This document shows, piece after piece, positions 2,988 through 21,097 of a stretch of 64,000 nucleotides of DNA. The stretch lies in assembly GCA_963643925.1 (NCBI GenBank), contig CAVINS010000001.1, positions 27,568 to 91,567 on the forward strand, given 5' to 3'. Position 1 is the first letter of the stretch. Each line of letters starts with the position of its first letter. Position numbers and translations under genes: made by a program. Origin of the DNA: Bacteroidaceae bacterium. GTDB taxonomy: Bacteria > Bacteroidota > Bacteroidia > Bacteroidales > Bacteroidaceae. The notes beneath the pieces are model-generated. The model did not search any database, was not told the DNA's origin, and saw only the letters and a list, made by a program, of their open reading frames with translations.

Positions 2988-3003
2988 AAATGTTCTGTTG
3001 AGA

Positions 3004-5082
3004 TTAATAACCATAATAGTTCTTGTACTGTCCTACGCTTCGGCTGACTACATCGCGTGGAATTGGCAGGATGTAGCGCACTGGTGGCAGGTTGTCCAAT
3101 ACGTCCTCCGAATCGTAATCGGGCATTGTGGATGGGAGTAATGTTCCGCCATCGTCGATGTACATGTAGCCACGTATAGAGTAGCGTATAGCTGCTTTGG
3201 CAATACCGGTTTCGTCTTCCAACCAACTGAATAAATCGACCATTGTCCATACATCCTTGTCTGTGCCTGAGGTCTTTATATTATCCTGCCATTCAACATG
3301 TGATCCCCAGTTTTCCCACAGGGTGTTAAGATCTGGTGTGACATCGTCATCACCGTCATTATAATGTCGATAGAACTCAATGACACCTAAGCTGGAGTCT
3401 GTGTTGGGGAAGTCAAATACTTCAGGATAGTTTGTTTCGGTGTACCTGTTCGGATTTCCATTAACCAACTCGTTCCATTCCGAACGCGTATGGATACGGT
3501 AGTATATCTTTTTGGGATATTCGGTCATCTCTCTATCCGAATGGAAGTATGAATCGTCGTCGGAACCCATGGCATAGTAAAGCCAGAAGTTCTTGTAGAT
3601 TACTTTGTTGTAGATGTTCCAGCGAACCAGGTCTTTCCAACGGATACCTTCGCCGCCGAACTCCCAGGCACGCTCGTCCACAATGGCATCGAAGAAAGCC
3701 TCTTTGGTGGTGAGATTATCCACATAGGTCTCCACCATCTCCGGCTTGTTGGTAGCGTTGCGGAACGCACGCTCACGCACCTGCTTGAGCGCAGCTTTAG
3801 CTTCTGCCGTCGGTCCGTTGTTGATCTCGTTCTCAGCCTCGGCATACATCAGCAACACATCGGCATAACGCATGTAGGGGAAGTTGATGCCGGTGTTTCC
3901 CTGTGAGGTGTTGCCCATGGTGTGCGACTTGTCCCACAACTTGGACCACTTCAGGCAGTAGTTGGTGTAGCTGTTCAGCAAGCTCGGGGTGCCGTTGTTG
4001 CTGTATGACCAGTAGCCTGCCACATTGCGGCGCACATCTTGAGAGTCGAAACTGTAGCGATAGAAGGCGTTAAGGCCTACCGAGCCACTGCATCGTCCCC
4101 ACGGATGGTCGGTGTCGCCAGCACTGGAGAGGTCGGCCTTCGGTCCATGTATATAGCCGATGTTACCATTCACGTTGCGCACGAACGGGATCTCGAAGAT
4201 GACATCGTCATCGTTCACTACGGTGTAGTTACACTCGTTGATGAACACGTCGAAATAGCTATTGGTCAGCTTGTGGGTGGCGGCATCGATCACCTTCTTG
4301 CAATATTCGCTGGCAATCTTGTAGTAGTCGGCATAGTCAGCCGAGCGTTCCATGGTACCTACGGCCGTGGCATCCTCGCCGTGGCGCAGAGAGTAGCCTG
4401 CACGGAACATGGCGATGCGGGCGATGAGGGCCCATGCGAACTCTTGTGTACAACGCTCCACGCCTTCGGTCACTTCCTTAGCCTGACGCATTTTCGGTGC
4501 AGCCTCTTTCAGGTCGTTGATGAGGTCGGTGAGGATTTGGTCGCGGTCGCCCATCGGCATGACGAGGGACTCCTGGTCGTACGTACGGGTGAACGAGAAG
4601 GGAATGTCGCCCCACAGGATGACCATATCCAGGTAGTTCATGGCCCGGATACACTTGGCCTCACCAATCATTTGGTCGAGGTCGTCATCGCCATAGAGAG
4701 CGGATTTCTCAGCCGCGTTGATAAAGTTGTTGGCACGCTCTACAGTAGCGTAGGCTGCGTCCCAGATGCTCTTGGCATTGCTTCCGTCGGCCTCGCCGTC
4801 GAAGAGTTTCCATTCGTTGTGCGAAGCACTCTGTTCGCTGGCGGATGAGGTGGACCACTCCACGTCGCTGTTGAAGTTTACGGTGGTGAGGTAGGCGTTT
4901 CCGTAGGTGTTGCTGGAACAGGTGGCCTGGTATACGGAGTTGAGCAGACGGTCAGCCTCTTCGAGACTGCTGAATACTTGCTCGTCCGTCACCTTGGAAG
5001 GCGCTTCCACATCGAGGTAGTCGTTGCAGGCACTGAGTGCTACCAGCGACATACCGCAAATGAGTATATGTTTTATTTTCAT
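3004..5082 (-). CDS. SusD/RagB-family nutrient-binding outer-membrane lipoprotein
   Basis: Lipoprotein signal MKIKHILICGMSLVALSAC followed by NDYLDVEAPSK. 692 aa. Immediately downstream of the SusC-like gene. Confidence 0.95.
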   Translation of the reverse strand: MKIKHILICGMSLVALSACNDYLDVEAPSKVTDEQVFSSLEEADRLLNSVYQATCSSNTYGNAYLTTVNFNSDVEWSTSSASEQSASHNEWKLFDGEADGSNAKSIWDAAYATVERANNFINAAEKSALYGDDDLDQMIGEAKCIRAMNYLDMVILWGDIPFSFTRTYDQESLVMPMGDRDQILTDLINDLKEAAPKMRQAKEVTEGVERCTQEFAWALIARIAMFRAGYSLRHGEDATAVGTMERSADYADYYKIASEYCKKVIDAATHKLTNSYFDVFINECNYTVVNDDDVIFEIPFVRNVNGNIGYIHGPKADLSSAGDTDHPWGRCSGSVGLNAFYRYSFDSQDVRRNVAGYWSYSNNGTPSLLNSYTNYCLKWSKLWDKSHTMGNTSQGNTGINFPYMRYADVLLMYAEAENEINNGPTAEAKAALKQVRERAFRNATNKPEMVETYVDNLTTKEAFFDAIVDERAWEFGGEGIRWKDLVRWNIYNKVIYKNFWLYYAMGSDDDSYFHSDREMTEYPKKIYYRIHTRSEWNELVNGNPNRYTETNYPEVFDFPNTDSSLGVIEFYRHYNDGDDDVTPDLNTLWENWGSHVEWQDNIKTSGTDKDVWTMVDLFSWLEDETGIAKAAIRYSIRGYMYIDDGGTLLPSTMPDYDSEDVLDNLPPVRYILPIPRDVVSRSVGQYKNYYGY

Positions 5083-5116
5083 ATCGTATTTTCTCCTTTA
5101 TTGATTAACAGAAAGT

Positions 5117-8100
5117 TTAGAACGAAAGGTTCATACCGAACAGGTAACTGTGTGTACGCGGGTAGCGATTATAGTCCACGTTCGGGGTCAGACCGTTCTG
5201 GATGTCCACCTCGGGGTCGAAGCCCGAGTAGTTGGTGAGACAGAAGAGGTTCGAACCGGTGAAGTAGAGACGCAGGCGAGAAATGCCCCAACGCTTGGTG
5301 AGGTCGCTTGGCAGGGTGTAACCGATGGTCACGTCGGTCAAGCGGACAAACGAACCGTCCTCCACGAAGTTGGACAGTGTGTACTTGGTGGTCACGTTCT
5401 GCGGGTTCCACAGGGTCTTGCCGGCATTGATGCGCTCGTACTCGTCGAGGTAGTCGGTGTGCTGCGAGTTGGCGAGCAACGGCTCGTTGAGGTTATAGAT
5501 CTCGCGGGTACCGTCGGCATAGGTGTTGTAGATGTCGCCATAGTAAACCCAACGGTTCTCGTAGTCGAACTTGCTCAGTACGTTACGTGGGTCTGTACGG
5601 CTGGAACCTACTGCGGACGAGAGGTTGTAGGCCGTAGCGTTGATCAGGTCGAAGTTGAGCATGTAGGTGAAGTTGGCCGTGAAGTCGAAGTTCTTGTACT
5701 TGCCCGAGATGCCGAAGCCACCTTGTAGTTTCGGGTTGGTGTTACCTACCACGGTACGGTCGTTGATGTCAATCTTGCCGTCACCGTTGAGGTCTTTCAG
5801 TTTGATGCGGCCCGGAGCAGTTCCGTAGAGTCCTTCCACGGTCGGTTTCTCCTGTACGCCTGGGTTCTCTGCCAGATAGTCTGCATCGTTGATGGCGTAG
5901 TTGTAGCCTTCGCGGTGGAACTCGTCGAAGCCATAGATGCCGTCGTAGATGTAACCATAGATGAGTCCTACTTCTTTGCCCTCTACCAGGCGGAAGTTGT
6001 CCTCAGAGTCCCACGACTTGGCGGGGATGTACGCATCCGTACCGTTAATCTTCTCCACCTTAGTCTTGTTCATACCCATGTTGAAGTTGGCAGACAACAC
6101 ATAGTCCTTGCCACGGAGGATGTCACCATTGACGGTCAGCTCGATACCGCGGTTGCGCACCTGGCCTACGTTCTGCCACTGATAGGTGTAACCTGTGGTG
6201 GTAGGAATCTGGCATCGGTAGAGCAAGTCGCGTGTGGTGTTCCAGTAGACCTCGGGAGTGATGGTCAGGCGTCCGTTGAACAGCGAGATGTCGGCTGCCA
6301 AGTTGCGGGTGACGGTGGTCTCCCATTTGATTTTCTCGTTCGGGAAGAGGTTGTCGGCAGCGTAGTACTTGTCGCCGTTCTGTGTAGTGGAGTTCTCGCC
6401 CCAGCTCGGTCCGCCATCGGCGTTGATGGAGTACTGGTAGCGCCAGCGGTCGTCACCGATGTTGTTGTTACCGGAGAGACCGTAAGCTACACGGAGCTTC
6501 AGGTTGTCGATTACGTCCTTGTTCCACCAGTCCTCCTCGGAGAGCACCCATGCACCTGATACTGAGGGGAAGTAGCCCCACTGGTAGCCAGGAGCGAAGC
6601 GTGTGGAACCGTCGGCACGCATTGTGAACGACAACAGGTATTTGTGTTTGTAGTTATAATTGGCCTGTCCGAAGAAGGAGGCTGTGCGGTTAGGAGTGGT
6701 CACACTGGAGGTCGACGCGTAAGCTGTACCCAAGCCCATGTTGTTGAACGCGTATCGGGGAGAGGTTTCCTGCGGGAAGTAGCGCGAAGCCTGGTAGTTA
6801 GTAGTCGTCTGTGTGTGGTAGATTTCCTGACCCAACAGGAAGGCGAAGTTGTGCTTCTCCTTGAGGCTGAACGCATAGTTCAACGTGTTGGTCCATGTGT
6901 AGCGGAACGAGCGGGAGTTGGTAATCTGTGCCACCGGCATGTTCTCGTTGGCGGCTGCCGTGTCGGTGAGGTAGCCATAGAAGCGGTTCTTGTCGGAGAA
7001 CGACCAGAACTGTGCGATGTCCGAGCGGAAGCTCAATCCCTTGATAATCTCCCATGTCAGGCTGGCCTGGTTGGTGAAGCTGTAGGAGTGGGTCAGCTGG
7101 TAGTTTTGGTCGATGTCGTCCAGTGGGCTCTTCACCATCCAGTAACGCTCTACGGAGAAGTCCTGCCACTCTTCGTCGTAGTTGGTCGCCTCGCGCAGGC
7201 CGTTTGTCGGGCGATAGTTGAGCACGCCAATCAAGCCTTCTGTACCGATGCCTGAAGCACCCGTACCGAGGTCGCGACGGTAGGTAAAACGCGGGTTAAT
7301 CAACAGCTTCACGTTCTTGGCCAGCTGCACGTCGATCTTCGTGTTCATGTTGGTACGGCGTACGCCAGAGCCGGCTATGATACCGTCCTGGTTGTGCTGG
7401 GTCAGCGAGGTGTTGAAGCGCAACTTCTCGTTACCGCCGTTTACCGTCACGTTGTACATTTGCGTCAAGGCACCATCGCCCATCAGCTCGTCCTGCCAGT
7501 CGTGGGTAGGCATGCTTTTGTACACGTCCACGTCGTTGGGGTTACCGAAATCGCGGCGGAACATGTAGGTGTTGCTGTTGCTGCCGATGCAGGCGTCCAA
7601 CTGGTATCTTACGAACTCGTAGGAGTTGAGCATGTCCTGCTTGCCTGCCAACCACGAGAGCTGTGCGTAAGCGTTGAAGTCCACCTTCACCTTGCCTTGC
7701 TGAGCCGATTTGGTGGTGACGATGACTACGCCGTTACCGCCTCGCGCACCATAGACAGCGGTCAAGGAAGCGTCCTTCAATACGTCGATGCTCTGGATAT
7801 CCGTCGGCGGGATATCGTTGATGTTGTCTGCCTGGAAACCGTCGACAATGAACAACGGCTTGGAATCCTGAGAGCTGGAGATGGCCGAACCGCCACGGAT
7901 GCGGATGTTTATGTCGGCACCCGGCGCACCATCGACAGTGGTTACCTGCACGCCGGCAATCTTACCTTGCAGGGCCTCTGCGGCAGATGCCACAGGCACG
8001 ATGGCCAGTTTCTGTCCGGACACAGATCCCACGGAACCGGTCAAGTCCTTACGGGCACGGCTCGTGTAACCTACAACGACAACCTCTTCGAGAGCTTGGC

Positions 8101-8407
8101 TGTCGTCTTCCAATACAACATCCACTTGGGGAGCTGCTTTCACTTCTTGCGTTCTCATACCCATGTATGAGACAACCAACGTACGGCCCTTTGCCGTCTT
8201 CAGGGTGAAGTTACCGTCGAAGTCGGTGATGGTACCGTTCTTCGAGTTTCCTTTCTCAACTATGGAGGCTCCGATGATCGGCTCTCCACTGGAATCTTTC
8301 ACATTCCCTTTCACGGTGAGACTTTGTGAATAGACTTCTGGGGGTATACATACCAGAAAAGCCATTAGCCACAGAGCCCACTTCATTTTTCTTTTCAAGT
8401 CCTTCAT
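5117..8407 (-). CDS. SusC/RagA-family TonB-dependent outer-membrane transporter
   Basis: Carboxypeptidase-regulatory-like N-terminal domain (LTVKGNVKDSSGEPIIGASIVEKG...TDFDGNFTL), plug, and a barrel ending YLFGMNLSF. The ORF-track start at 8449 is GTG. In-frame ATGs at 8407 (MKDLKRK) or 8386 (MKWALW) are more likely starts. Confidence 0.95.
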   Translation of the reverse strand: MKDLKRKMKWALWLMAFLVCIPPEVYSQSLTVKGNVKDSSGEPIIGASIVEKGNSKNGTITDFDGNFTLKTAKGRTLVVSYMGMRTQEVKAAPQVDVVLEDDSQALEEVVVVGYTSRARKDLTGSVGSVSGQKLAIVPVASAAEALQGKIAGVQVTTVDGAPGADINIRIRGGSAISSSQDSKPLFIVDGFQADNINDIPPTDIQSIDVLKDASLTAVYGARGGNGVVIVTTKSAQQGKVKVDFNAYAQLSWLAGKQDMLNSYEFVRYQLDACIGSNSNTYMFRRDFGNPNDVDVYKSMPTHDWQDELMGDGALTQMYNVTVNGGNEKLRFNTSLTQHNQDGIIAGSGVRRTNMNTKIDVQLAKNVKLLINPRFTYRRDLGTGASGIGTEGLIGVLNYRPTNGLREATNYDEEWQDFSVERYWMVKSPLDDIDQNYQLTHSYSFTNQASLTWEIIKGLSFRSDIAQFWSFSDKNRFYGYLTDTAAANENMPVAQITNSRSFRYTWTNTLNYAFSLKEKHNFAFLLGQEIYHTQTTTNYQASRYFPQETSPRYAFNNMGLGTAYASTSSVTTPNRTASFFGQANYNYKHKYLLSFTMRADGSTRFAPGYQWGYFPSVSGAWVLSEEDWWNKDVIDNLKLRVAYGLSGNNNIGDDRWRYQYSINADGGPSWGENSTTQNGDKYYAADNLFPNEKIKWETTVTRNLAADISLFNGRLTITPEVYWNTTRDLLYRCQIPTTTGYTYQWQNVGQVRNRGIELTVNGDILRGKDYVLSANFNMGMNKTKVEKINGTDAYIPAKSWDSEDNFRLVEGKEVGLIYGYIYDGIYGFDEFHREGYNYAINDADYLAENPGVQEKPTVEGLYGTAPGRIKLKDLNGDGKIDINDRTVVGNTNPKLQGGFGISGKYKNFDFTANFTYMLNFDLINATAYNLSSAVGSSRTDPRNVLSKFDYENRWVYYGDIYNTYADGTREIYNLNEPLLANSQHTDYLDEYERINAGKTLWNPQNVTTKYTLSNFVEDGSFVRLTDVTIGYTLPSDLTKRWGISRLRLYFTGSNLFCLTNYSGFDPEVDIQNGLTPNVDYNRYPRTHSYLFGMNLSF

Positions 8408-8538
8408 TATTGCTATTACTTGGTTAACAAAAATGTGGGTGGTGCCCACGATTAATAATCACTCTATTTTTACTGTTGACAATTAAATCAAATGAGAAAT
8501 AATGATGCGCTGATTATGCCTGTCATAGTAACTATGGG

Positions 8539-8546
8539 CAAAAGTA
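8539..8546 (-). promoter_or_regulatory. -7 box TACTTTTG (minus strand) for the susC/susD/lipoprotein operon
   Basis: Plus strand reads CAAAAGTA, which is TAnnTTTG on the minus strand, about 130 nt upstream of the ATG at 8407. The -33 element is not clear. Confidence 0.45.
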
Positions 8547-8660
8547 GACGAAAGGAATGAACAAACCTAACAAAAATGCAAAAAAGTTTAATGAAATGTG
8601 TGCTTTTTAAATTGAGCATCTAAGGAACCGTTCCGACTTTTCGTACGTAAAGAGCAGTGG

Positions 8661-9491
8661 TTAGTCGGTGAAATCGCCTGTTTTGTCAGATGCTGAGCTG
8701 CGAGGACTTCTTGTAGCACGCACAATGATGATGCTTACCTCGTAGAGCAGATACATGGGTAAAGAAACCAACGTTAACGTGAAGACATCGGAGGTGGGGG
8801 TGATGATGGCGGCGATGATGAGGATGACGACAATGGCGTGCCGACGGTAATGCCGCATGAAGTCGGCGGTGATGAATCCCAGTTTGGCGAAAAGCCAACA
8901 GAGCATGGGCATCTCGAAGACGATTCCCAGCGAGAGGCTCAGCAGAGTGAAGGTGGAGATGTAGGACTCCAGCGTGATGAGGTTGCCCACGGCAGCGCTC
9001 ACCTGATAGGTGCCCAGGAAACGGAAGGTGAAGGGGAAGATGAGGAAATAGCTCACCAGCACACCGGCGAGGAAAAGCAGATAACCGAAGCCCGCCACGC
9101 GTACTGCATAGCGGCGCTCGTCGGCATAGAGCGCTGGTGACACGAAGCGGAATAGTTGGTAGAGGATGTAGGGCGAGGCGCAGAGGATGCCTGCATAGAT
9201 GGCGACCTTCATGTGGGTGAGGAACTGTCCCGCCAAGGCGGTGTTGATGAGCTCCACATGAAACGCCTCCGTACCCTCCTGCTGCATGAGGGGCGCTATG
9301 AGGTTGAACAGCCGGTAGGTGACGAAGTCGGCATCCTTGGGCGCCAGTATCACCTGGAAGAGGAGGTCCTTGCAACAGAACAACACGACACTGCACACGA
9401 CCACTATTACCGCAATGCGGATAATGGTCGTGCGCAGTGCATCCAGATGCTCCCAGAAGGTGAGTGGCGTCGGTTCCGTCTCCTTACTCAT
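8661..9491 (-). CDS. tatC: Twin-arginine translocase subunit TatC
   Basis: 276 aa polytopic protein. N-terminus [17 protein letters not shown] is typical of TatC. It overlaps the tatA stop by 8 nt. Confidence 0.95.
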
Positions 9492-9681
9492 CCTTCTTTG
9501 CGTCGGTGTCGTCTTTCTTGTCGTTGTCCGTCTTCTCGGGCTCGGGGTTGTTCATGCCATCCTTGAAGGCACGCACGCCCTTGCCAAGGCCCTTCATCAG
9601 TTCGGGTATCTTCTTGCCTCCGAAGAACAGCAGGATGACCAACAGAATGACGATAATCTCTTGTGTACCGATTCCAAACAT
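9484..9681 (-). CDS. tatA: Twin-arginine translocase subunit TatA/E
   Basis: 65 aa. [42 protein letters not shown] gives a single TM helix plus an amphipathic helix, followed by an acidic tail. Confidence 0.93.
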
Positions 9682-9683
9682 AG

Positions 9684-10193
9684 TTATTTACGTATTAGAT
9701 AGTTGATAAACAGATATCCTCCAAAGATTTGCAACAGCATGCCCGGGATGGCTATGCGGAAGTCCTGCAGGGCGGCATAGAGGCTGCCGCACCAAGCCCA
9801 CTCGAAGAGGGTGCCCGTGAGTTGGTAGAAGAGCACCACGCCCAGCAGCAAGGCTACCGTAGCTTTGTGGTAGCGGTGGGCGGCCCAGCCACATCCTGCA
9901 GCCAACAGACCCGACTTCACCGCAATGGCCGGCACCACTGACAGGGCCGGCATGCCGAACAGCAACGAGTTGACGAGGGGAGAAGTCAGGGCGGTGAGCA
10001 GACCCACCTTCCATCCGTACTTGTAGGCACCGATGAGGGTGAAGAAGTAGATGGGCAACCACGTCTTTCCGCCCATAGGGATGAGGTGGAAGAGCTGCGG
10101 CAACGCCACGTTGCCCACGATGAACAGCAGAGCCAGCAGGTAGGTGCGGCTCTCCGTATAGTTATAACTGTAGAGTTTTACTGATGTTTGCAT
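9684..10193 (-). CDS. Small polytopic membrane protein (ECF-transporter S-component-like), function unknown
   Basis: 169 aa with 5-6 hydrophobic segments. Its stop is 2 nt before the tatA start. No EcfA/EcfT genes are nearby. The family call is from memory. Confidence 0.6.
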
Positions 10194-10263
10194 ATTGTTG
10201 TTACTTATTAGTTATTACGTGTTTTTTATTCCGTTCGCCAAGCCTAAGTCTCCTATTAGTCTC

Positions 10264-10689
10264 TTAGACCTTTAGACTTTTAGTCTTTTGCATGAACTCC
10301 TTCACCTGCTGCCGACACTCCTCAGCCGTGCGGCACTCCCGGCAGCGGGTTTCCATAGGGCACCATCCCGTGTGGGCACGGTTGATGATGTGGTCCACCC
10401 GTTGCGTGTAGTGCACCGCCATAGGTGACTGTTGCAACAGTTCCAGTGCCAGGTCGCTGATGACATCGGCATAGAGCTCCGTCACTCCGCCTAGCATCAT
10501 CAGGCTGGCAGCGGCTTTGCCCACTACCTTGTCCGCCACAGTGGCTCCCCGCAGCAGTTGAGGCTCTTCGGCCAACAGACTGTGGAGGTCCGCCACGCCG
10601 CGGTTGTCGAAGCAACGCACGGTCTCCCCTTGGCGCACCACCAATGAGTGGGGCCCTTGGTGCAACAGTTCGGTCAGTTCGCTCGTCAT
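10264..10689 (-). CDS. DUF1893 (TM1506-like) domain protein
   Basis: ATG at 10689 (MTSELTELLHQGPHSLVV...) overlaps the upstream stop as ATGA. The C-terminal cysteine cluster is CPMETRCRECRTAEEC. The upstream part of ORF 10264..10791 lies inside the preceding gene. Confidence 0.8.
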   Translation of the reverse strand: MTSELTELLHQGPHSLVVRQGETVRCFDNRGVADLHSLLAEEPQLLRGATVADKVVGKAAASLMMLGGVTELYADVISDLALELLQQSPMAVHYTQRVDHIINRAHTGWCPMETRCRECRTAEECRQQVKEFMQKTKSLKV

Positions 10690-12104
10690 ACCGTGGGGTC
10701 TTGTTTCAGTTCTTCCACAAAGTCGTTCACGCGCTTCATCTCCTGCGGGATGCGGATGCGCTGTGGGCAATGGCTCACACACTGGCCGCAACCGATGCAG
10801 TGACTGGCCTGGCGCAGACGCGGCACACTGCGGTCGTACCCGATGAGGAACGCCCGGCGTGCCCGGCGGAAGTCAGGATGCTCGTTCCCCTTGTTGGGCA
10901 TGTTTCCCTCCTTGATGCACCGGTTGTAGTGCGCGAAGATGGCGGGTATGTTGATGCCGTAAGGGCAAGGCATGCAGTAGTTGCACTCGTTGCAGGGAAT
11001 GGTCTTCAGGTTGTAGATGTCGTTGGCAATCTCCATCAGGAAGGCGTTCTCCTCGTCGTTGAGCGGTTTCAGTGGCGAATAGGTGCAGAGGTTGTCCTTC
11101 AGGTGCTCCATGTAGGTCATGCCGCTGAGCACTGTCAGCACTCCGTCTGGTGTGCCGGCAAAGCGGAAGGCCCAGCTGGCCACGCTCTGTTCCGGCTCGC
11201 GTTGTTTCATCTTCGCCACGATGGGGTCGGGCACCTTGGAAAGGCGTCCGCCCAACAGCGGCTCCATGATGACGGCAGGGATACCTCTCTTCTTTAGCTC
11301 ACCATAGAGATATACGGCATCCGTGTTGCGGTCGTTTATTTCGTCGGCATAGTTCCAGTCGAGATAGTTGAGCTCTATCTGCACGAAGTCCCAGTGGTAG
11401 CGGCCCTCGTCGTGCCATTGTAGGGCGAGGTCGAATATCTTGATGTCGCCGTGGTACGAGAAGCCGAGGTTGCGGATGCGTCCCTTCTGCTTCTGCTCCA
11501 CCAACCAGTCCAGAATGCCGTTGTCCATATAGCGGGCGTTGAAGTCCTTCAGTGCGTCGTTGCCCATGCCGATGCCGTGGAGCAGTAGGTAGTCCACATA
11601 GTCCACCTGCAGCTCCTTGAGCGAGGTCTCGAACATGTCGATGGATGCCTGCCGGGTCCACGTGGCGGGTGAGAAGTTGGACAACTTGGTGGCCACGTAA
11701 TAGCTCTCCCGCGGGTGACGGCTGAGGGCGATGCCGGTGCTGCGCTCCGACAGTCCGCGGCAGTAGGCGGGGGAGGTGTCGAAGTAGTTCACGCCATGCT
11801 CCAGGGCATAGTCCACCTCTTGGTTCACCATCTCCTGGTCTATCTCGCTACTTTGTTTCTCTCCGTTCACCTCTTCCTCTTTCATGGGCAGTCGCATCAT
11901 GCCGTAGCCGAGTATCGACACACGGTCCTGCGTGTTGGGGTTCACCCGATAGGTCATCTGGCCGACAGGCGGCTCGTGGGGGGTGAAGGTGTCCGTGATG
12001 TTTGTCTTGCCCTTGCAGCCAGGCAACAGGGAGAGCGATGTGGCAGCCACGGCTCCGCTGCCCAGCATCTTCAGAAACTTTCTTCTGTCTATATCTTTCT
12101 TCAT
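10686..12104 (-). CDS. Aldo-keto reductase fused to a C-terminal 4Fe-4S ferredoxin-type domain, with a twin-arginine lipoprotein signal peptide
   Basis: N-terminus MKKDIDRRKFLKMLGSGAVAATSLSLLPGC combines a Tat motif RRKFLK with a lipobox. AKR motifs are present: YFDTSPAYCRG, YVATKLS, LLLHGIG. Cys motifs are CNECNYCMPCP and CIGCGQCVSHCP. Confidence 0.9.
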   Translation of the reverse strand: MKKDIDRRKFLKMLGSGAVAATSLSLLPGCKGKTNITDTFTPHEPPVGQMTYRVNPNTQDRVSILGYGMMRLPMKEEEVNGEKQSSEIDQEMVNQEVDYALEHGVNYFDTSPAYCRGLSERSTGIALSRHPRESYYVATKLSNFSPATWTRQASIDMFETSLKELQVDYVDYLLLHGIGMGNDALKDFNARYMDNGILDWLVEQKQKGRIRNLGFSYHGDIKIFDLALQWHDEGRYHWDFVQIELNYLDWNYADEINDRNTDAVYLYGELKKRGIPAVIMEPLLGGRLSKVPDPIVAKMKQREPEQSVASWAFRFAGTPDGVLTVLSGMTYMEHLKDNLCTYSPLKPLNDEENAFLMEIANDIYNLKTIPCNECNYCMPCPYGINIPAIFAHYNRCIKEGNMPNKGNEHPDFRRARRAFLIGYDRSVPRLRQASHCIGCGQCVSHCPQRIRIPQEMKRVNDFVEELKQDPTV

Positions 12105-12128
12105 AATAGTCGTCTTTAGAGGGGTGGG

Positions 12129-13718
12129 TTATACAATACGGTGCTTCTCGTGACCTTCCACATAGATGGCGCTGAACGGACGGGCGGGGCAGAGGTTCTC
12201 GCATGCTCCGCAACCGATGCAACGCTCGGCGTTGACCACTGGTATCAAGGGCGACTGTTCGTCGTTGGGGTCGGAGTTGACCATGGAGATGGCCATCGTG
12301 GGGCAGTGGCGCGCACAGTTGCCACAGGCCACCCCATCCGTCAGCGGGATGCAGTTCTTGCGCACCCACACGGCGTGGCCAATCTGTATGGCGGTCTTGT
12401 CCGCCCGTGTGATGGGCTTGATGGCTCCGGTGGGGCACACCTCGCCACACTTCGTGCACTCCGGTCGGCAGTAGCCACGCTCGTACGACATGGTGGGTTG
12501 CATCAGTGTCATCAGTCGGGTGGAGGGGCGCAACACATCGTTGGGACACACCGTCACGCAGAGTTGGCAGGCGGTGCAGTGCTGCGTCATGTTGTTGGCA
12601 GAGAGCGATCCAGGTGGGGTAAGCGGTGTTTCCCGATGCGGTGCTATCTTGTCCTCGATGGCTGCCAGTCCGCCGTCCACTTTCTTCTGTTCCTGTGCCA
12701 GTGCGATGGTGGTGGCGGTCATGGCGGTGCCGATGACGAAGGTTCGTCGGCCGGTGTCTATCGTTTCGTTCGTGGTCTTTGGGGGTTCGGTAGCTCCTGC
12801 GTTCTCCTTATTTAGTAGGTTTGCTTTGTTCACGGGCTCTGCCGATGTGGGTTGAGGCTCCGCTTCCGCCATCGCTACCGGTTGCACGCCACCCTTGGGG
12901 TGACCGAAGGAGATGGCTCCCTTGTGGCACACACCGATGCAGTTGCCACAGGTCACGCAACGGGAGTAGTCCACCGCATGGTTCTTGCTGTCGATGCACG
13001 CCGCCTTGCAGCTGCGCTCACATAGTCCGCATTGGTTGCACTTGGTGGTGTCCACATGAATCTTCAACCATGAGAAGTGCGCGAAGAAGCTCAGCACCGT
13101 GCCCACTGGGCAGATGGTGTTGCAGTAGGTGCGGCCGCCTCGCCATGCCAACACGATGAGCACCACGAAGGTGACGGTGGCTATGACGAATGTGGGCAGA
13201 CTGCGCATCCACACCTCCTTCCCGTATAAGTCGTAGCTGTCTGCGCGCTCGGCCAGATAGGCCAATCCGTTGTTGCCCCAGTCGTAGAGCGGAGCGAACA
13301 GGTTCTGCACGATGCGCCCATAGGAACTGTAAGGTGCCAGCAGCGCTACAAACGAGCCGATGCCGGTGATGATGGCAACTACGAACAGTGCCAGCACCGT
13401 GTAGCGCAACCAGCGCTTGGCTGGACTGTAGCCGAAGCGATACTTCTTCTTTTTGCGTCTCCCGCTGATGGCGGAGACCACATCCTGGAATATGCCCAAC
13501 GGGCAGATGACCGAGCAGTAGATGCGTCCGAAGACGAGGGTCAAGGCGAGCAGACACAGTATCACGCCCACGTTTAGTGCCAGCATGGCGGGCAAGAACT
13601 GAATCTTTGCCAACCATCCGAACCACGCATGCAGTGTACCGGTGAAGTCGAGAAACAGTGCCGTGATGAGCAGCAGTGCCACCACGGCCAATGTTAGTCT
13701 GATTTTACGTAACGTCAT
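12129..13718 (-). CDS. Membrane polyferredoxin: a NapH-like 4-TM module fused to a NapG-like four-cluster ferredoxin module
   Basis: Two CxxCP motifs follow TM helices (RIYCSVICPLG, RTYCNTICPVG). Six Cys-cluster motifs are present (CNQCGLCERSC, CVTCGNCIGVC, CTACQLCVTVCP, CRPECTKCGEVCP, CGNCARHCP, CIGCGACENLCP). There is an internal TGRRTFVIGTAMTATTIALA segment. The ORF-track start at 13769 is TTG and lies inside the -7 box, so the ATG at 13718 (MTLRKIRL) is preferred. Confidence 0.9.
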   Translation of the reverse strand: MTLRKIRLTLAVVALLLITALFLDFTGTLHAWFGWLAKIQFLPAMLALNVGVILCLLALTLVFGRIYCSVICPLGIFQDVVSAISGRRKKKKYRFGYSPAKRWLRYTVLALFVVAIITGIGSFVALLAPYSSYGRIVQNLFAPLYDWGNNGLAYLAERADSYDLYGKEVWMRSLPTFVIATVTFVVLIVLAWRGGRTYCNTICPVGTVLSFFAHFSWLKIHVDTTKCNQCGLCERSCKAACIDSKNHAVDYSRCVTCGNCIGVCHKGAISFGHPKGGVQPVAMAEAEPQPTSAEPVNKANLLNKENAGATEPPKTTNETIDTGRRTFVIGTAMTATTIALAQEQKKVDGGLAAIEDKIAPHRETPLTPPGSLSANNMTQHCTACQLCVTVCPNDVLRPSTRLMTLMQPTMSYERGYCRPECTKCGEVCPTGAIKPITRADKTAIQIGHAVWVRKNCIPLTDGVACGNCARHCPTMAISMVNSDPNDEQSPLIPVVNAERCIGCGACENLCPARPFSAIYVEGHEKHRIV

Positions 13719-13766
13719 AAATAATAGGTTTGTCAGTATAATTAAGTATTGTAAGTTAGTCGAAAG

Positions 13767-13774
13767 CAAAGGTA
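13767..13774 (-). promoter_or_regulatory. -7 box TACCTTTG (minus strand) for the polyferredoxin-AKR-tatAC operon
   Basis: Plus strand reads CAAAGGTA, about 50 nt upstream of the ATG at 13718. Confidence 0.5.
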
Positions 13775-13880: not shown

Positions 13881-15347
13881 TTACACCTTGCGGCATTGGA
13901 TGAGGGCCTTCTCGCCCGAGGCGAGTGTGGTGGCGAAGAGGTAGGTGTCGCCTCCGTCCGCTAGATGGAGCTTCTTGCGCAGGTCGTTCACCGAGGCGGG
14001 GAAGTTGCGGATGGTCACATTGGCCTGTCTCAATGTCGACAAGGCTTTCAGCTCTTTCTTGCTGAAGCCCCAGGTCTGTTCTATGGTGAAGCAACGACCG
14101 GGAAAATCGGGTAGGAGGGTGTCGCCGGTGTAGAGATGACTGTTGGGGTGCAGCTTCTGCAGCCCGTAGCGCAAGCCTGCGCTGTGGTAAGCCCCGGCCT
14201 TCAACAACGAGGCATTCGGCTCATAGAGGTAATGGCCCACCGTGTCGGCATAAGTGGTAGTGACGGAAGACTCCTCGCGGGGCTTGAAACTGAACGATGA
14301 ACAATAGACTTCTGCCCCGTTCGGTAATATAAATAATGGTACTATGCCGTGGCTGCTCGTCGAATCGTCCTTCGAACAGGCGTCTGCTCCCGTATCAATG
14401 GCCTTTCCCACGGATACTGAGGGATGTCCTTGCCGGGGAGTAAGATTGACGCAGTGTATCTGTGGCTCATCGGTTGAGGCTTTGCCTGAGGAGAGGCGGA
14501 GCAACAGCTCCTTGCACTCATTCTGCACCGATATGACGTAGACATCTGTGATGGCGGTGAGGCTGCGTAGAGCTTGGGTAATGTCCAGCATCGGGGAGAG
14601 TTTGATGAGTATGGTCTCACCTTTCTGCAACAACAGGGACTCCAGTTGGCAGATGTCTGGTTCGCAGTCGGCAATGGCTACAGTCTTCCGTCCATGCACA
14701 TCCCTACGGGCAGGGTCGACGAAGAGGCAGTCCACCTTCTCCATTTGTTGCAGATACTCCGCGCAGTCGGCGTTCACTACCTCGATGGTGGTGGCTCCCA
14801 GTACATCCTTCTTCTCCATTCGCTGTAGATACTTCGTACAGTCAGGATTCACCACCTCGTTGGCTTTCTTTTCGGTTTCCTCCGTCGCCAATTCTTTTGG
14901 ATAGCAAACGGTCTTACCGGAGAGTTCTATCTCTCCCTCTGAGGTGATGCGGTTCAGCAATAAGGGGAAGTTATGACGTGCAATGTCGCAGAGCAGGGAT
15001 TGCCGTTCCACATATGTGGCCTTGCGGAACCGGGTAGAGAGGAAGAAACAGTCTACCCCGAAGCCGGCGGTAAGGTCGGTGAAACTCTCGCCGCTGACGA
15101 GGGTGGCTTTGTAGCGTGCGGTAATCTCCGATGAGCATTGCTCCAGCGGCAAGTGTGGCGCATAGAGGATACCGTCCGTCATGCCCCATGTGGGCAGTTT
15201 ATGGCGTGCCGTCTGTCGCCCCGCTATCTGTGTGAGGGCAAGAGGCAGGTCCACACCCTTCTTCCGCTTTGCCTTCAGGGCCAGCGCCCGTACGTCCGCC
15301 TTTGCGTTACGCTCGATGAAATCGATAGTTTCTGCCGACAGTTCCAT
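13881..15347 (-). CDS. Class I SAM-dependent methyltransferase (THUMP-like/PG_1098-type family) carrying a 25-aa internal duplication
   Basis: N-terminus MELSAETIDFIERNAKADVRALALKAKRKKG and motif LFVDPARR. The ATG at 15347 is preferred because a -7 box lies at 15377-15384, downstream of the first ATG at 15398. Confidence 0.85.
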   Translation of the reverse strand: MELSAETIDFIERNAKADVRALALKAKRKKGVDLPLALTQIAGRQTARHKLPTWGMTDGILYAPHLPLEQCSSEITARYKATLVSGESFTDLTAGFGVDCFFLSTRFRKATYVERQSLLCDIARHNFPLLLNRITSEGEIELSGKTVCYPKELATEETEKKANEVVNPDCTKYLQRMEKKDVLGATTIEVVNADCAEYLQQMEKVDCLFVDPARRDVHGRKTVAIADCEPDICQLESLLLQKGETILIKLSPMLDITQALRSLTAITDVYVISVQNECKELLLRLSSGKASTDEPQIHCVNLTPRQGHPSVSVGKAIDTGADACSKDDSTSSHGIVPLFILPNGAEVYCSSFSFKPREESSVTTTYADTVGHYLYEPNASLLKAGAYHSAGLRYGLQKLHPNSHLYTGDTLLPDFPGRCFTIEQTWGFSKKELKALSTLRQANVTIRNFPASVNDLRKKLHLADGGDTYLFATTLASGEKALIQCRKV

Positions 15348-15376
15348 ATTCCTTGTCAATATGTTGTTTCGGAGAA

Positions 15377-15384
15377 CAAAGGTA
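15377..15384 (-). promoter_or_regulatory. -7 box TACCTTTG (minus strand) for the methyltransferase, just downstream of the ccsBA stop codon (15391-15393)
   Basis: Plus strand reads CAAAGGTA, 30 nt upstream of the ATG at 15347. Confidence 0.4.
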
Positions 15385-15390
15385 ATGCTT

Positions 15391-17862
15391 TTACGCATAA
15401 CTGTGCATACCGCCGAGGAGGAAGTTCACGCCGAAGTAGGTGACGAGTACACTCAGGAAGGCGATTACGGTGAACAGGTGGAAGAACAGAGGACGACGGA
15501 ACCAGCTCAGCGAGGCGGTATGGAGTGCCGAGGCATAGATGAGCAGTGTGATGAGGGCCCACACCTCCTTGGGGTCCCAGCCCCAATAGCGGCCCCACGA
15601 CACGTTGGCCCACACGGCACCGATGAAGATGCCCGTGGCCAAGCAGAAGACAGCCGGATAGAGCAGTATGCGGCTCAGTACCTGCAGACGTTCTATCTCC
15701 TCGCGGTGTGCGCCCTTGGAACCGTAAAGCACCAGGGCAGTCACGCCATTGAACATCATGAAGGCCAGCAGGGCGTAGGCCACCATGATGACCATCACGT
15801 GGAAACTGAGTAGCGGCGACGAGAGTACAGGCATGAGTTGTGTAATCGGTGGATTGGCTTCGCCAAAACGTGCCACCATCAGTGCCAGGCCACAGAGCAG
15901 GAAACCAAATGCCATGGCTGTCCGGAACCGCCTGTACAGCACGTACGACAACAGCAACGCACATACCGCCATGCACTGCATCGTTTCGTAGCCGTCGGAC
16001 ATCGGCAGGTGATGACTGACATAGCCGCGCAGACAGAGCAATAGCAACAGGAATGCGCAGATGATGCCTCCGAGGAATTGCAATGTCAGGGAGATGATGG
16101 TTCCCTGGAGATTATCCCCCTTTTCATCGCTCCGTATGGATGTAGAGGTAGACTTTCCACCCCTGTCTTTTGAACCGGCTATCATCCTCCGGAGGTAGTA
16201 GACGAAGCTGACGATGCCCAGCAGAAGGCAGACGATGGCGATGGGCAGGTTTTGGTTGAGGCGGTTATAGAGCAGTTCGGCTTGGATGTGGCTCTCCGAA
16301 GGGAGCTGATTGCCTCCTTCCGTCTGTTGGAACTTGCGCAGTTTCCTTATCACCTCCAGTGTGCGGTCGGTGTTGTCCATGGCTATCTGCTCCCCGAGGT
16401 AACTCATACTTTTGTGGATGAAAAGGGCCTTTTCTGCTTCCATCGTTACAGGTAGTTGGTCGGCGGTGGAGTACCACCGTAGTGCCTGCGCACTGTCAGC
16501 CGGGCCGGGGAAGAGCTTCAGTAGACTGCCTGTGCAGACCATGCTCACGAGGTTGAACTTTTCGTTGGCCTCCTCCAGTGCCCGTTTGTCCTTCGGGTTG
16601 TCCGTGGTGCGCAGTGCCTGCTCCAGCTTATAGCCGTTGAGGTCTACAAAGTCGCGCAGGGAGGCGTAGCTGCCTTGCAGGCCCAGCAACGTACGCACCC
16701 GTTTGTTCTTGATGCGGATGATGGGTTCCTCCTTCCATTGGTCGTAGTAGAATACCCACCCGCTCAGTACCTGCTCTGCCGTCAGTCCGCGGTACGAACG
16801 CTTGCCGCAGAGTTTCATGGCGAAGTCCTGCGCCAATGTCTGCAGTGGGCAGACCCGCTCGTTGTAGTAGACGTAGAGACGTCCCCATTCCGTTGCCGTC
16901 TCTTTGGGGAGGGTTTTGGGGTGACTCGTCTTTCCTACCTTTATCCCATCCTCTATGGGATAACCGTCTGCACCTTCTTTAGTTTTATTCCCACTTGTTC
17001 CCATATAGGCCAGTAGGCCTCCCGTAGCTTCCGTCAGGTTTTCCATGGACTCCGAAGTGAGAGATGGGACGCTAATGGCGACAGCATGCCTTCTCATTTC
17101 CACAGCATGCCTTGTCGTTGCCGTAGCAAGGCTTGTTGTCAGCAGCAGAAGCAATGTGGCGAGTGAACCTTTACGCAGCAGCGGGTGACGGAGCAGTTGT
17201 CGGAACTGACTGCCTCGTTGGAAGAAGAAGGCCAGCATGCTGAGTAGCAGCAAGGCGTAGCCGGTGTAGGAGAGGAAGATGCCGTAGGGGTCGTGTGCCA
17301 CGGAGAGTGTAGTGCCACGACCGTCGCTGTCGTAGCTCGACTGGTAGAAGCGATAGTGGCGGTAACTGCAGATGTGGTTCATGGCGACCCGCTCCTCATG
17401 CCTCTCTCCGCCGTCGCTGATGATGAGTTCGCTCAAAAAGTCCATAGGTGCTTGCGTGCCTGGGTAGTAGTCGAGATGAAATGCTTTCAGTGTCAGACCG
17501 AAGGGTAGGGCGTGCGTTGCTCCGTCGCCATCGGTAAAGGTGCTGACCGCTTCCTCACCTTGACGCAGGTGGATGCTGCCGTGCTGCCCCGTGCAGTAGG
17601 TGGTGAGTCCGCCTAGCAGGATGACTCCAAAAGAGAGGTGCAAGGCGAAGGTGACGGCTTGCCGTTGTACCCCTCGCCGTAGCAGATAGCAGAGGCTACA
17701 CAGGGCGGCGATGCCCCACAGCACTACGAACAGAGGTGAACTGTAGACATGGTGCGTCACGAAGTCCGTGCCGTAGCATTTCTCCACCACCGTGGCACCT
17801 ATCAGTATCGCCACCAGCAAGGCGGTCAGTCCAAAAGAGAGCGTTTTCATCATTGTTTTCAT
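15391..17862 (-). CDS. ccsBA: System II cytochrome c synthase, fused CcsB(ResB)-CcsA
   Basis: 823 aa polytopic protein. The C-terminal Trp-rich WWD-type motif is WGRYWGWDPKEVWALITLLIY. The N-terminal half is ResB-like. Confidence 0.88.
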   Translation of the reverse strand: MKTMMKTLSFGLTALLVAILIGATVVEKCYGTDFVTHHVYSSPLFVVLWGIAALCSLCYLLRRGVQRQAVTFALHLSFGVILLGGLTTYCTGQHGSIHLRQGEEAVSTFTDGDGATHALPFGLTLKAFHLDYYPGTQAPMDFLSELIISDGGERHEERVAMNHICSYRHYRFYQSSYDSDGRGTTLSVAHDPYGIFLSYTGYALLLLSMLAFFFQRGSQFRQLLRHPLLRKGSLATLLLLLTTSLATATTRHAVEMRRHAVAISVPSLTSESMENLTEATGGLLAYMGTSGNKTKEGADGYPIEDGIKVGKTSHPKTLPKETATEWGRLYVYYNERVCPLQTLAQDFAMKLCGKRSYRGLTAEQVLSGWVFYYDQWKEEPIIRIKNKRVRTLLGLQGSYASLRDFVDLNGYKLEQALRTTDNPKDKRALEEANEKFNLVSMVCTGSLLKLFPGPADSAQALRWYSTADQLPVTMEAEKALFIHKSMSYLGEQIAMDNTDRTLEVIRKLRKFQQTEGGNQLPSESHIQAELLYNRLNQNLPIAIVCLLLGIVSFVYYLRRMIAGSKDRGGKSTSTSIRSDEKGDNLQGTIISLTLQFLGGIICAFLLLLLCLRGYVSHHLPMSDGYETMQCMAVCALLLSYVLYRRFRTAMAFGFLLCGLALMVARFGEANPPITQLMPVLSSPLLSFHVMVIMVAYALLAFMMFNGVTALVLYGSKGAHREEIERLQVLSRILLYPAVFCLATGIFIGAVWANVSWGRYWGWDPKEVWALITLLIYASALHTASLSWFRRPLFFHLFTVIAFLSVLVTYFGVNFLLGGMHSYA

Positions 17863-18005
17863 TGTTACGTTAGCGTCCCCGTGCGAAGAGCGGGGAAGTG
17901 AATAGTGTCGATATATCCTGCAGTATAGTGTTCGGTGTATGTCACCAGGAGTCTGACCTGGGAAGACTCCTTATACCTATATATATAATAAGGTATAGAA
18001 GAAAA

Positions 18006-18054
18006 GAGGTTGGGGACGAGTTCCTCCTTTCGGACGGACACGTTTCCCAACCTC
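18006..18054 (-). terminator. Long stem-loop downstream of the di-haem gene (terminator or attenuator before ccsBA)
   Basis: GAGGTTGGG (18006-18014) pairs with CCCAACCTC (18046-18054), and an inner imperfect stem surrounds TTTCGG. It lies in a 211-bp gap that also holds AGGAGTCT/AGACTCCT and TATACCT/AGGTATA stems. Confidence 0.5.
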
Positions 18055-18073
18055 TCGCATGTATAGATAAGAT

Positions 18074-19741: not shown

Positions 19742-19921
19742 TGTTGTTTTTGTTTTAGTAGGTTTCTTCTTAATACCCTGTTACCACTCCTCCGGAGGAC
19801 TCTCGCCCCCGGTGGAATGGTAAAAAGGAACAATAAACTTTGCCTGAATGATGTCCGATGCTCTCCTCCGGTTTGTCGCATCACCGGTCATCGGTCACCT
19901 TGTGGTCGAACGTAAGAATTA

Positions 19922-21055: not shown

Positions 21056-21097
21056 TGTCGTTTATGCGTTAGTTATTTATTGTGTTTACCTATTGAC

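Follow-up and report, generated by a model that had tools for sequence, protein, structure and literature searches.

Why would the genes of a twin-arginine translocation (Tat) system stand at the end of a gene cluster that opens with a polyferredoxin and an aldo-keto reductase (AKR)? This question is raised by a six-gene locus in a 64,000-nt stretch of a Bacteroidaceae bacterium contig (CAVINS010000001.1), the whole of which was analysed and is referred to below as the window. AKRs are textbook soluble, NAD(P)H-dependent enzymes, and the AKR of this locus bears a Tat-type leader, a lipobox and a C-terminal iron-sulphur (Fe-S) domain; proteins with this barrel and Fe-S domain are called AKR-FeS here. 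As judged by genome comparison the module is real and widespread in Bacteroidales. With moderate confidence we propose that it is a redox module facing the periplasm, complete in itself and supplied with export machinery of its own, in which the polyferredoxin would act as a membrane wire, the AKR-FeS as the Tat-exported enzyme, a DUF1893 protein as an accessory and a 169-aa membrane protein as a transporter-like component. The features of the locus are as follows.

13767-13774, minus strand: TACCTTTG, a Bacteroidetes-type -7 box (TAnnTTTG), 48 nt 5' of the polyferredoxin ATG
12129-13718, minus strand: polytopic polyferredoxin, 529 aa (Pfam, NapH/NapG hidden Markov models (HMMs), independent gene call)
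12693-12749, minus strand: internal twin-arginine motif and fifth transmembrane helix of the polyferredoxin (residues 324-342, RRTFVIGTAMTATTIALAQ, then EQKK)
10686-12104, minus strand: AKR-FeS lipoprotein precursor, 472 aa (Pfam, AlphaFold2, Foldseek)
12015-12104, minus strand: predicted Tat signal and lipobox of the AKR (residues 1-30: DRRKFLK, h-region, LPGC)
10689-11009, minus strand: Fe-S domain of the AKR (residues about 366-472; C371xxCxxCxxC380P and C436xxCxxCxxxC446P)
10264-10689, minus strand: DUF1893/TM1506 protein, 141 aa, without a signal peptide (Pfam)
9684-10193, minus strand: 169-aa membrane protein with 5-6 transmembrane helices, ECF S-component-like (sub-threshold PF12822)
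9484-9681, minus strand: tatA, 65 aa (TIGR01411, PF02416)
8661-9491, minus strand: tatC, 276 aa (TIGR00945, PF00902)

The six open reading frames (ORFs) lie head to tail on the minus strand between 8661 and 13718 in the ORF list of the window, and the same six genes were returned by an independent gene call on the contig of a Bacteroidales metagenome-assembled genome (MAG), GCA_963609245.1. The original prediction, which was made from the sequence of the window, described six co-directional genes with spacings of 24, -4, 70, 2 and -8 nt, and every one of these junctions was confirmed. The polyferredoxin and AKR genes are separated by 24 nt (12129 to 12104), the AKR stop and DUF1893 start share an ATGA overlap that can be read directly in the sequence, 70 nt lie between DUF1893 and the 169-aa gene (10264 to 10193) and 2 nt between the latter and tatA (9684 to 9681), and the tatA stop overlaps the tatC start by 8 nt (ATGAGTAA). 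The polyferredoxin start is supported at the ATG at 13718 (529 aa); the mechanical ORF start, a TTG at 13769, is not the likely one. A single TAnnTTTG box had also been placed ahead of the genes, and TACCTTTG is indeed the sole intergenic minus-strand copy upstream of the cluster. The motif occurs 31 times in the window compared to 15.9 times in shuffled sequence, an enrichment of about twofold, and a motif this short is by itself weak evidence for a promoter. The 211-nt intergenic region between tatC and susC has TAnnTTTG boxes of its own, at 8539-8546 and 8562-8569. Because the junctions are tight, a single box lies 5' of the genes and a boxed 211-nt spacer follows tatC, the six genes look like a single transcription unit. 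Between 8300 and 14100 an Rfam scan returned no riboswitch or other RNA, and RNA elements therefore gave no clue to a ligand; a sigma-70 and terminator scan was uninformative for a Bacteroidetes genome. The translocase genes said to close the operon do so, and both products score above the curated HMM cut-offs: TatA with 63.5 bits for TIGR01411 (cut-off 53.9) and 57.1 bits for Pfam TatA (PF02416), and TatC with 164 bits for TIGR00945 (cut-off 132.7) and 217.3 bits for Pfam TatC (PF00902).

Two Tat clients had been predicted in the locus. The first is the AKR, whose N-terminus (MKKDIDRRKFLKMLGSGAVAATSLSLLPGC) consists of an RRKFLK leader and an LPGC lipobox ending at residue 30, with an h-region hydropathy of 1.5. 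It is the sole ORF in the window with an N-terminal Tat-type leader. Among 80 species-level Bacteroidales loci, the AKR orthologue has kept the RRxF/L motif (RRxFLK), the hydrophobic region and the lipobox cysteine in 78, the lipobox reading LAAC, LSAC, LTGC, LPGC, IVSC or similar at the same place, and in 26 homologues with a leader, some as distant as 30% identity, R7 and R8 do not vary. The linker that follows the cysteine is variable and modelled as disordered; in the AlphaFold2 model the predicted local distance difference test (pLDDT) is below 50 at residues 17-34. A search of 1.8 billion cluster representatives showed that the family splits in two, into proteins of about 450-470 aa with a leader and proteins of about 375 aa that start at the barrel, and the leader of about 50 residues is absent from the cytoplasmic relatives. 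The AKR thus looks like a genuine Tat client. The opposing view, that the arginine pair is no export signal and that the AKR-FeS stays in the cytoplasm like its leaderless relatives, can point to a score of 16.6 bits for the TIGR01409 Tat-signal HMM, just below its cut-off of 16.7, and to the DUF1893 protein, which has no signal peptide although its start codon overlaps the AKR gene. We regard this view as highly improbable given the 78 conserved leaders, their absence from the cytoplasmic relatives and a co-occurrence with tatAC and a Tat-dependent partner that is specific to leader-bearing proteins.

The second predicted client is the polyferredoxin. Pfam Fer4_5 matched it twice, together with many Fer4 matches, and transmembrane helices were found at residues 8-26, 45-63, 108-126 and 173-191 with a charge distribution that fits the positive-inside rule. 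The first gene had been described as a NapH-like protein with four transmembrane helices fused to a NapG-like four-cluster ferredoxin, and this fusion was recovered; the motif given as CxxCP is in fact CxxxCP (C68SVIC72P and C199NTIC203P). Both CxxxCP motifs and two [4Fe-4S]-type cysteine motifs at 227-264 are predicted on the cytoplasmic side. After the dicluster motifs come a Pro/Glu-rich linker, TGRRTFVIGTAMTATTIALAQEQKK and then the NapG-like half, with four cysteine motifs at 381-511 that follow RRTFVIG... and are predicted on the periplasmic side. The arginine pair at 324-325 stands immediately before a fifth transmembrane helix, which is followed by QEQKK and has a Kyte-Doolittle mean of 1.26 over 17 residues, compared to 2.36-2.65 for the first four helices. 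An internal RR (62) or KR (9) is found at the same position in all 71 full-length polyferredoxin orthologues, with conserved K-rich residues next. This arrangement recalls the NapH-NapG-fusion polyferredoxin of MLMS-1, for which dual Sec/Tat insertion was shown experimentally (Tooke et al. 2017, eLife, PMC5449189); there the two pathways insert the protein cooperatively, and the determinants are a weakly hydrophobic last transmembrane helix and the positive charges after it. The same paper names no partner enzyme or function for such polyferredoxins and lists other phyla, not Bacteroidetes. The window polyferredoxin has the architecture of these dual Sec/Tat proteins and is a predicted Tat client, a signal that the original prediction missed even though it counted two Tat substrates. 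With RR leaders in 78 of 80 AKR orthologues and internal RR or KR motifs in 71 of 71 polyferredoxins, both proteins look like true Tat clients.

The resemblance to nitrate-reductase components is one of design. NapH models gave 77.0 bits (TIGR02163, cut-off 213) and 78.8 bits (NF007013, cut-off 234), and the NapG/MauM models (TIGR00397 and NF007012) 74.9 bits (cut-off 269) and 62.1 bits (cut-off 178.9). Because these scores are far below the equivalog cut-offs, the polyferredoxin is best described as NapGH-like and not as a Nap component, and no nap or mau genes were found in the window. A bona fide Nap system was accordingly rejected as a candidate, on these scores and the lack of napA. Among the profiles that had been named for checking, Aldo_ket_red, Fer4 and Fer4_5 matched, TIGR01409 fell a tenth of a bit short and the NapH and NapG models stayed below their cut-offs.

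Is the partnership of these two proteins a property of one genome? A species-level genome scan gave at least 597 confirmed module loci, whose carriers include Prevotella, Phocaeicola, Parabacteroides, Alistipes, Muribaculaceae and rumen lineages. Neighbourhoods were scored in the 80 Bacteroidales loci, with tatAC counted when on the same strand and within 7 kb. The polyferredoxin immediately adjoins the AKR in 74 of them, and in three of the other six (L009, L024 and L044) there is too little sequence 5' of the AKR to tell. tatA-tatC was found in 39 of the 80, DUF1893 in 25 and the 169-aa gene in 22, mostly after DUF1893; no further gene recurs beside the module across these loci. The commonest arrangement is the polyferredoxin and AKR genes only (24 loci), and others have tatAC 5' of the pair (16 loci), the polyferredoxin, AKR, DUF1893 and 169-aa genes in that order (9 loci), tatAC directly 3' of the pair (8 loci) or the full six-gene order of the window (8 loci). 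Conservation of the leader and of the neighbourhood had both been offered as ways in which the Tat-AKR module could fail, and neither survey refuted it.

A control was provided by 80 metagenome loci fetched with a profile of leaderless members, in which 77 AKRs are leaderless. A polyferredoxin or tat neighbour was found for none of these 77 genes, which also lack a recurrent neighbour of any kind in the control loci; the sole two polyferredoxin neighbours in the set adjoin AKRs that carry Tat leaders. Divergent Tat-AKRs (35-42% identity) keep the partnership in other gene orders, such as AKR followed by a polyferredoxin with a shorter NapH part and an internal RR, polyferredoxin followed by two AKRs, or AKR, polyferredoxin, tatA and tatC; in one lineage a divergent AKR lies beside a convergent tatC-tatA pair. 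In a crude neighbour-joining tree, 26 of 28 leader-bearing sequences stand together at one end of the leaf order, in a run broken by a single sequence whose variant RR leader the pattern had missed; of the remaining two, one adjoins the run and one is nested among leaderless sequences. These comparisons indicate that the AKR-polyferredoxin pairing and its tatAC link are conserved and specific to the exported subfamily.

The tatAC linkage might alternatively be inherited synteny without functional meaning, the Tat system serving many other substrates and the operon being incidental. In keeping with this, 41 of the 80 loci lack tatAC within 7 kb, and the promoter evidence amounts to one short motif. 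We consider it improbable, since tatAC lies 5' of the pair in some genomes and 3' in others and adjoins it again in lineages with 35-36% AKR identity and different gene orders, and since, in the window, tatA and tatC are joined to the genes before them by overlapping and 2-nt junctions and no ORF other than the AKR has a Tat-type leader at its N-terminus.

Some loci of the survey merit separate mention. L088, from a divergent lineage, holds the partner in unfused form (1532-1729): a NapG-like ferredoxin encoded separately, which has an RR signal at its own N-terminus and a lipobox-like GVGC, starts 4 nt before the Tat-AKR stop and is cut off by the contig end after 66 codons. In L089, which carries a polyferredoxin-AKR-AKR set, a 4TM_phosphoesterase/Metallophos (YkuE-like) gene (1-1074) lies about 3.3 kb 5' of the polyferredoxin and about 5 kb from the first AKR; this is another family proposed to be dual Sec/Tat-targeted (PMC5449189). 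Four loci (L004, L007, L034 and L049) have a typical Bacteroidales module (63-77% identity) on contigs deposited as Firmicutes or Actinobacteria under the names Vescimonas coprocola, Paratractidigestivibacter sp., Clostridiaceae bacterium and Coprobacillus sp., and are probably mislabelled or contaminated bins.

What chemistry would such a pair carry out? Residues 65-356 of the AKR match Pfam Aldo_ket_red (PF00248) with 113.9 bits (cut-off 24), the C-terminal domain matches Fer4_9, Fer4_8 and Fer4_17, and the leader, lipobox and motifs FDTSPAY, ATKLS and LLLHG are present as first quoted. The AlphaFold2 model (pLDDT 91.8) is a (beta/alpha)8 barrel for which Foldseek returned AKR11C1, L-galactose dehydrogenase, AKR14A1 and other AKRs (E about 1e-15, target TM-score 0.7-0.83, over the barrel only). 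No solved structure in the PDB covers the AKR and Fe-S fusion, and the isolated Fe-S domain gave PDB sequence matches to generic ferredoxin-like domains only. Two CxxCxxCxxxCP motifs had been claimed for this domain; the second has this form (C436-C446P) and the first is CxxCxxCxxCP (C371-C380P). Across 75 members of the family, whether exported or cytoplasmic, none of the eight cluster cysteines or the two prolines varies, and the tetrad D109, Y114, K140 and H176 is kept in 99-100% of members of either group (80 exported, 76 cytoplasmic). Strong conservation extends to the positions aligned with the cofactor pocket (G66, G68, S216, Q242, E/Q244, P282, G285-G286, S327-G328-M329 and N338), and R71, H218, N246 and M280-E281 are family-specific invariants at pocket-aligned positions that differ from AKR11C1 or L-galactose dehydrogenase. 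Exported and cytoplasmic AKR-FeS proteins almost certainly share one chemistry. Leaderless AKRs have no recurrent neighbour and exported ones have the polyferredoxin, which would fit the exchange of a soluble partner in the cytoplasm for a dedicated membrane partner outside. The simplest reading of this gene context is that the Fe-S domain is an electron port, served by a soluble carrier in the cytoplasm and by a dedicated membrane polyferredoxin outside.

The original prediction went further and held that an exported AKR has no access to NAD(P)H, so that electrons must come through Fe-S clusters. This does not follow from the data, given that the tetrad and the residues aligned with the nicotinamide pocket are conserved as in the cytoplasmic relatives. 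The quinol donor, the reductive direction and the carbonyl or sugar substrate of that prediction are likewise conjectural. The AKR could instead be exported with a tightly bound NAD(P), like the glucose-fructose oxidoreductase of Zymomonas, and carry out ordinary hydride transfer, its Fe-S parts being structural, regulatory or cofactor-resetting. Such a role would agree with the tetrad and pocket positions, which are conserved identically in exported and cytoplasmic members, with the SGM...N segment of the AKR, which resembles the VGM...N of NAD-using L-galactose dehydrogenases, and with Tat export, which suits any cofactor bound before transport. We nevertheless consider it unlikely. Eight cluster cysteines that are invariant across the family are hard to explain if they lie off the catalytic electron path, a dedicated six-cluster membrane partner appears exactly when the AKR is exported, R71, H218, N246 and M280-E281 depart from canonical AKRs at positions lining the pocket, and there is no flavin domain to couple one- and two-electron chemistry.

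The remaining two genes of the module were examined for what they might contribute. The DUF1893 protein matches Pfam TM1506 (PF08973) with 161.9 bits (cut-off 27), and its closest solved relative is TM1506 itself (PDB 1VK9, E 6e-8); a second solved structure annotated as a DUF1893 domain-containing protein is PDB 9e9a, for which no associated paper was found in the literature. In a Salinivirgaceae MAG (GCA_017474765.1; L171, 8001-9830) a single 609-aa protein runs from a Tat leader through the AKR and Fe-S domain to a C-terminal DUF1893, and its gene lies between those of the polyferredoxin and tatA-tatC. A sequencing frameshift is an unlikely explanation of this fusion because its 90% cluster has 7 members from independent assemblies. 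Another protein has a Sec-type signal fused to DUF1893 and an AKR. Separately, a 457-aa DUF362-DUF1893 fusion with a lipoprotein signal is encoded just 5' of a polyferredoxin-AKR-tatAC set (L020, 7106-8476). These proteins suggest that DUF1893 can be extracytoplasmic, and the last of them suggests the same for DUF362. The fusion with the exported AKR, seen in one family, makes DUF1893 a probable subunit of that enzyme, and because it has no signal of its own and its start overlaps the AKR stop, we infer that it would leave the cytoplasm together with the AKR. Such 'hitch-hiking' is known for other Tat substrates. A role for DUF1893 as a Tat proofreading chaperone was considered and rejected, as it occurs with leaderless AKRs and is fused to the exported enzyme.

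The linkage of TM1506/DUF1893 to AKR and 5TM genes in Firmicutes and Bacteroidetes had already been noted (Iyer et al. 2011, NAR, PMC3239186), a precedent that the original prediction overlooked, and its authors proposed NAD/ADP-ribose sensing or transport regulation for the association. The 169-aa protein scores 19.7 bits for PF12822 (ECF S component), below the gathering score of 30.7. Seventeen of its 22 orthologues match this family weakly (best E 4.8e-7, all below the gathering score), two of the 22 give weak FolT-family matches (NCBIfam), and a PDB profile search with the 169-aa protein gave no match, so that we speak only of a resemblance to an ECF S component. In one locus (L005, 11797-13686) and about 4 others, a 629-aa TonB-dependent receptor gene is inserted between DUF1893 and the ECF-S-like gene, and DUF1893 has been found fused to TonB-dependent receptors (Iyer et al. 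2011, PMC3239186). The insertion hints at uptake of a small molecule.

Taken with the domain architectures, the conserved export signals and the pairing specific to the exported subfamily, all of which the sequences and their comparison show, these observations allow a working model of the redox module. Sec would insert the four hydrophobic helices of the polyferredoxin, leaving the two CxxxCP and two [4Fe-4S] sites in the cytoplasm, and the internal RR and weakly hydrophobic fifth helix would hand the folded four-cluster domain to Tat for transfer to the periplasm. The AKR-FeS would fold and gain its two clusters in the cytoplasm, be exported by Tat through its RRKFLK leader and be anchored by a lipid at Cys30. 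In the periplasm its Fe-S domain would dock on the NapG-like domain of the polyferredoxin, and electrons would run along a chain of up to eight clusters between the membrane and the AKR site (Asp109, Tyr114, Lys140 and His176). The membrane end of the chain would be the menaquinone pool, or cytoplasmic donors acting through the NapH-like clusters, and at the active site a small periplasmic substrate would be reduced, or possibly oxidised. DUF1893 would serve as an accessory subunit of the AKR, probably co-exported with it, and the 169-aa membrane protein would probably move a related small molecule. Within this model we infer the docking, the flow of electrons through the clusters and its direction, the donor and the substrate.

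Several points weigh against the model, in addition to the Tat-signal score that falls just below its cut-off. Menaquinol, at about -74 mV, is too weak a reductant for simple carbonyls, at about -200 mV, which makes simple carbonyl reduction by quinol thermodynamically awkward. Three ways out are a substrate of higher potential (quinone-like, an activated dicarbonyl or other), entry of low-potential electrons from the cytoplasm by way of the NapH-like clusters, and an enzyme that oxidises its substrate. The pocket-aligned residues are as conserved in exported as in cytoplasmic members, for which reason AKR-FeS may still use a nicotinamide cofactor. No flavin is evident in the protein, and to our knowledge no enzyme passes electrons between Fe-S clusters and NAD(P) without one. 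A lysine follows the lipid-anchor cysteine directly in 31 of 78 scored AKR orthologues, that of the window included; should lipoprotein sorting direct the AKR to the outer membrane, contact with its inner-membrane partner may be hindered. The AlphaFold2 model of the polyferredoxin, built with 35 homologues, has a pLDDT of 43.5, and in it the helix at 322-343 alone is worth noting. A few Tat-AKR loci (L043, L146 and L172) have no nearby polyferredoxin. DUF1893 and the 5TM gene also occur beside leaderless AKRs (L120 and L094), and their association is therefore not specific to the periplasmic module. Finally, a literature search that covered subscription journals only in part found no paper describing any member of the module, no experimental work on any AKR-FeS protein, and no description of a Tat-exported AKR-FeS, its polyferredoxin pairing or the recurrent tatAC linkage.

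The thermodynamic point leads to an alternative that shares the whole architecture and reverses the flow, in which a periplasmic dehydrogenase oxidises a sugar, alcohol or aldehyde and delivers electrons to the menaquinone pool and on to fumarate respiration. Alcohol/aldehyde and aldose/lactone couples lie well below menaquinone, so that oxidation would be downhill and carbonyl reduction by quinol would not; L-galactose dehydrogenases, enzymes that work in the oxidative direction, are among the closest solved folds; and all the comparative evidence for the module is as compatible with this direction as with the other. The characterised NapH-family proteins (NapGH, NosR, RdhC and CcoG), however, send electrons outward to periplasmic reductions (PMC5449189), and no catabolic or transport genes for an oxidised product recur beside the module in the 80 loci or the leaderless control. 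We judge this reversal to be rather doubtful, although less so than export with a bound cofactor.

Directly upstream of the module, at 15391-22522 on the minus strand, genes encode a 474-aa outer-membrane-protein-like protein, an imelysin (Peptidase_M75), a di-haem DHOR oxidoreductase and a fused ResB-CcsB (823 aa), a run that looks like a periplasmic iron/haem-type cluster carrying its own cytochrome c maturation gene. Between it and the module, at 13881-15398 on the minus strand, a 505-aa protein with PG_1098 ferredoxin-like and THUMP-like C-terminal domains is encoded, its gene overlapping the CcsBA stop region by 8 nt; this protein is found near the module in one other locus only (L071), on the opposite strand. 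Downstream, 552-8449 on the minus strand is a polysaccharide-utilisation-type locus, with a SusC/SusD pair and then an 820-aa protein with weak DUF4957/DUF5123 matches. Membership of the module in the imelysin/DHOR/CcsBA cluster or in the SusCD locus was rejected, as neither recurs beside the module in the 80 loci.

The TatAC system, dual Sec/Tat polyferredoxins, the combination of AKR and Fer4 domains and the DUF1893 linkage are all of kinds already known. An AKR that is exported, held by a lipid anchor and connected to a membrane Fe-S chain would widen the catalytic types in periplasmic electron transport, and because the module is not rare (at least 597 loci), a redox activity of dominant gut and rumen bacteria is at stake. 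The dual Sec/Tat polyferredoxin family would gain its first candidate physiological partner, DUF1893 would be placed in a definite context, that of a subunit in an exported enzyme, and for the minimal TatAC system of Bacteroidales the module suggests which clients are likely to be the principal ones. As a broader and more tentative idea, AKR-FeS proteins might form a class of enzymes with an AKR fold for which ferredoxin or polyferredoxin, in place of free NAD(P)H, is the driving partner. In Bacteroidales the exported form, with its NapGH fusion and Tat-hitch-hiking DUF1893, might then be a periplasmic reductase or dehydrogenase of respiratory type that has gone unrecognised and acts on a small molecule from diet or host, and it might be a main reason why these anaerobes keep Tat. 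The module is directly testable in genetically tractable Bacteroides, Phocaeicola or Parabacteroides strains.

How does the module compare to known systems? Tat-exported sugar-type oxidoreductases that bind their cofactor in the cytoplasm are known, namely the glucose-fructose oxidoreductase of Zymomonas mobilis and the periplasmic Gfo/Idh/MocA enzymes of Bacteroides. Unlike AKR-FeS, these have a Rossmann fold, no Fe-S clusters and no membrane electron partner, and their bound NADP cycles between two substrates. The window AKR shares the (beta/alpha)8 fold and D-Y-K-H tetrad of canonical AKRs (AKR11C1, PDB 1YNP; L-galactose dehydrogenases, 7SMI and 7EZL; AKR14A1), but those are soluble, cytoplasmic and cluster-free, whereas it adds a 110-residue Fe-S domain after the barrel. 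It is closer to the cytoplasmic AKR-FeS proteins (about 375 aa, annotated 'aldo/keto reductase'), with 35-41% identity over barrel and Fe-S domain and the same tetrad, pocket invariants and eight cluster cysteines; these differ from it in having neither the leader nor a polyferredoxin or tat neighbour (0/77). The linkage described in PMC3239186 included such an AKR, whose Fe-S domain was called a zinc ribbon of the rubredoxin-like type, and the Tat leader, polyferredoxin and tatAC were not noted there.

On the membrane side, the window polyferredoxin resembles that of MLMS-1 (PMC5449189) in being a NapH-NapG fusion with an RR before a weakly hydrophobic fifth helix and positive charges after it, and the positions match, with the RR near residue 324 here and the fifth transmembrane segment of MLMS-1 spanning 338-359. 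It departs from that family as described in belonging to Bacteroidales and in having a conserved AKR-FeS neighbour, and its Tat dependence is predicted from sequence. Like NapGH of E. coli and Wolinella, it has four transmembrane helices, two CxxxCP motifs and two cytoplasmic [4Fe-4S] motifs in the NapH-like half, a Tat-type periplasmic four-cluster protein as its NapG-like half, and a presumed role in linking the membrane or quinone pool to a Tat-exported enzyme. Unlike NapGH, the halves are fused in one polypeptide, no nap genes lie nearby, and an AKR-FeS takes the place of a molybdoenzyme or cytochrome as partner. Set beside these systems, the module is rated as one of a known kind, a predicted periplasmic redox enzyme that depends on Tat and has a membrane partner of the NapGH type, with a catalytic fold that is without precedent in that role.

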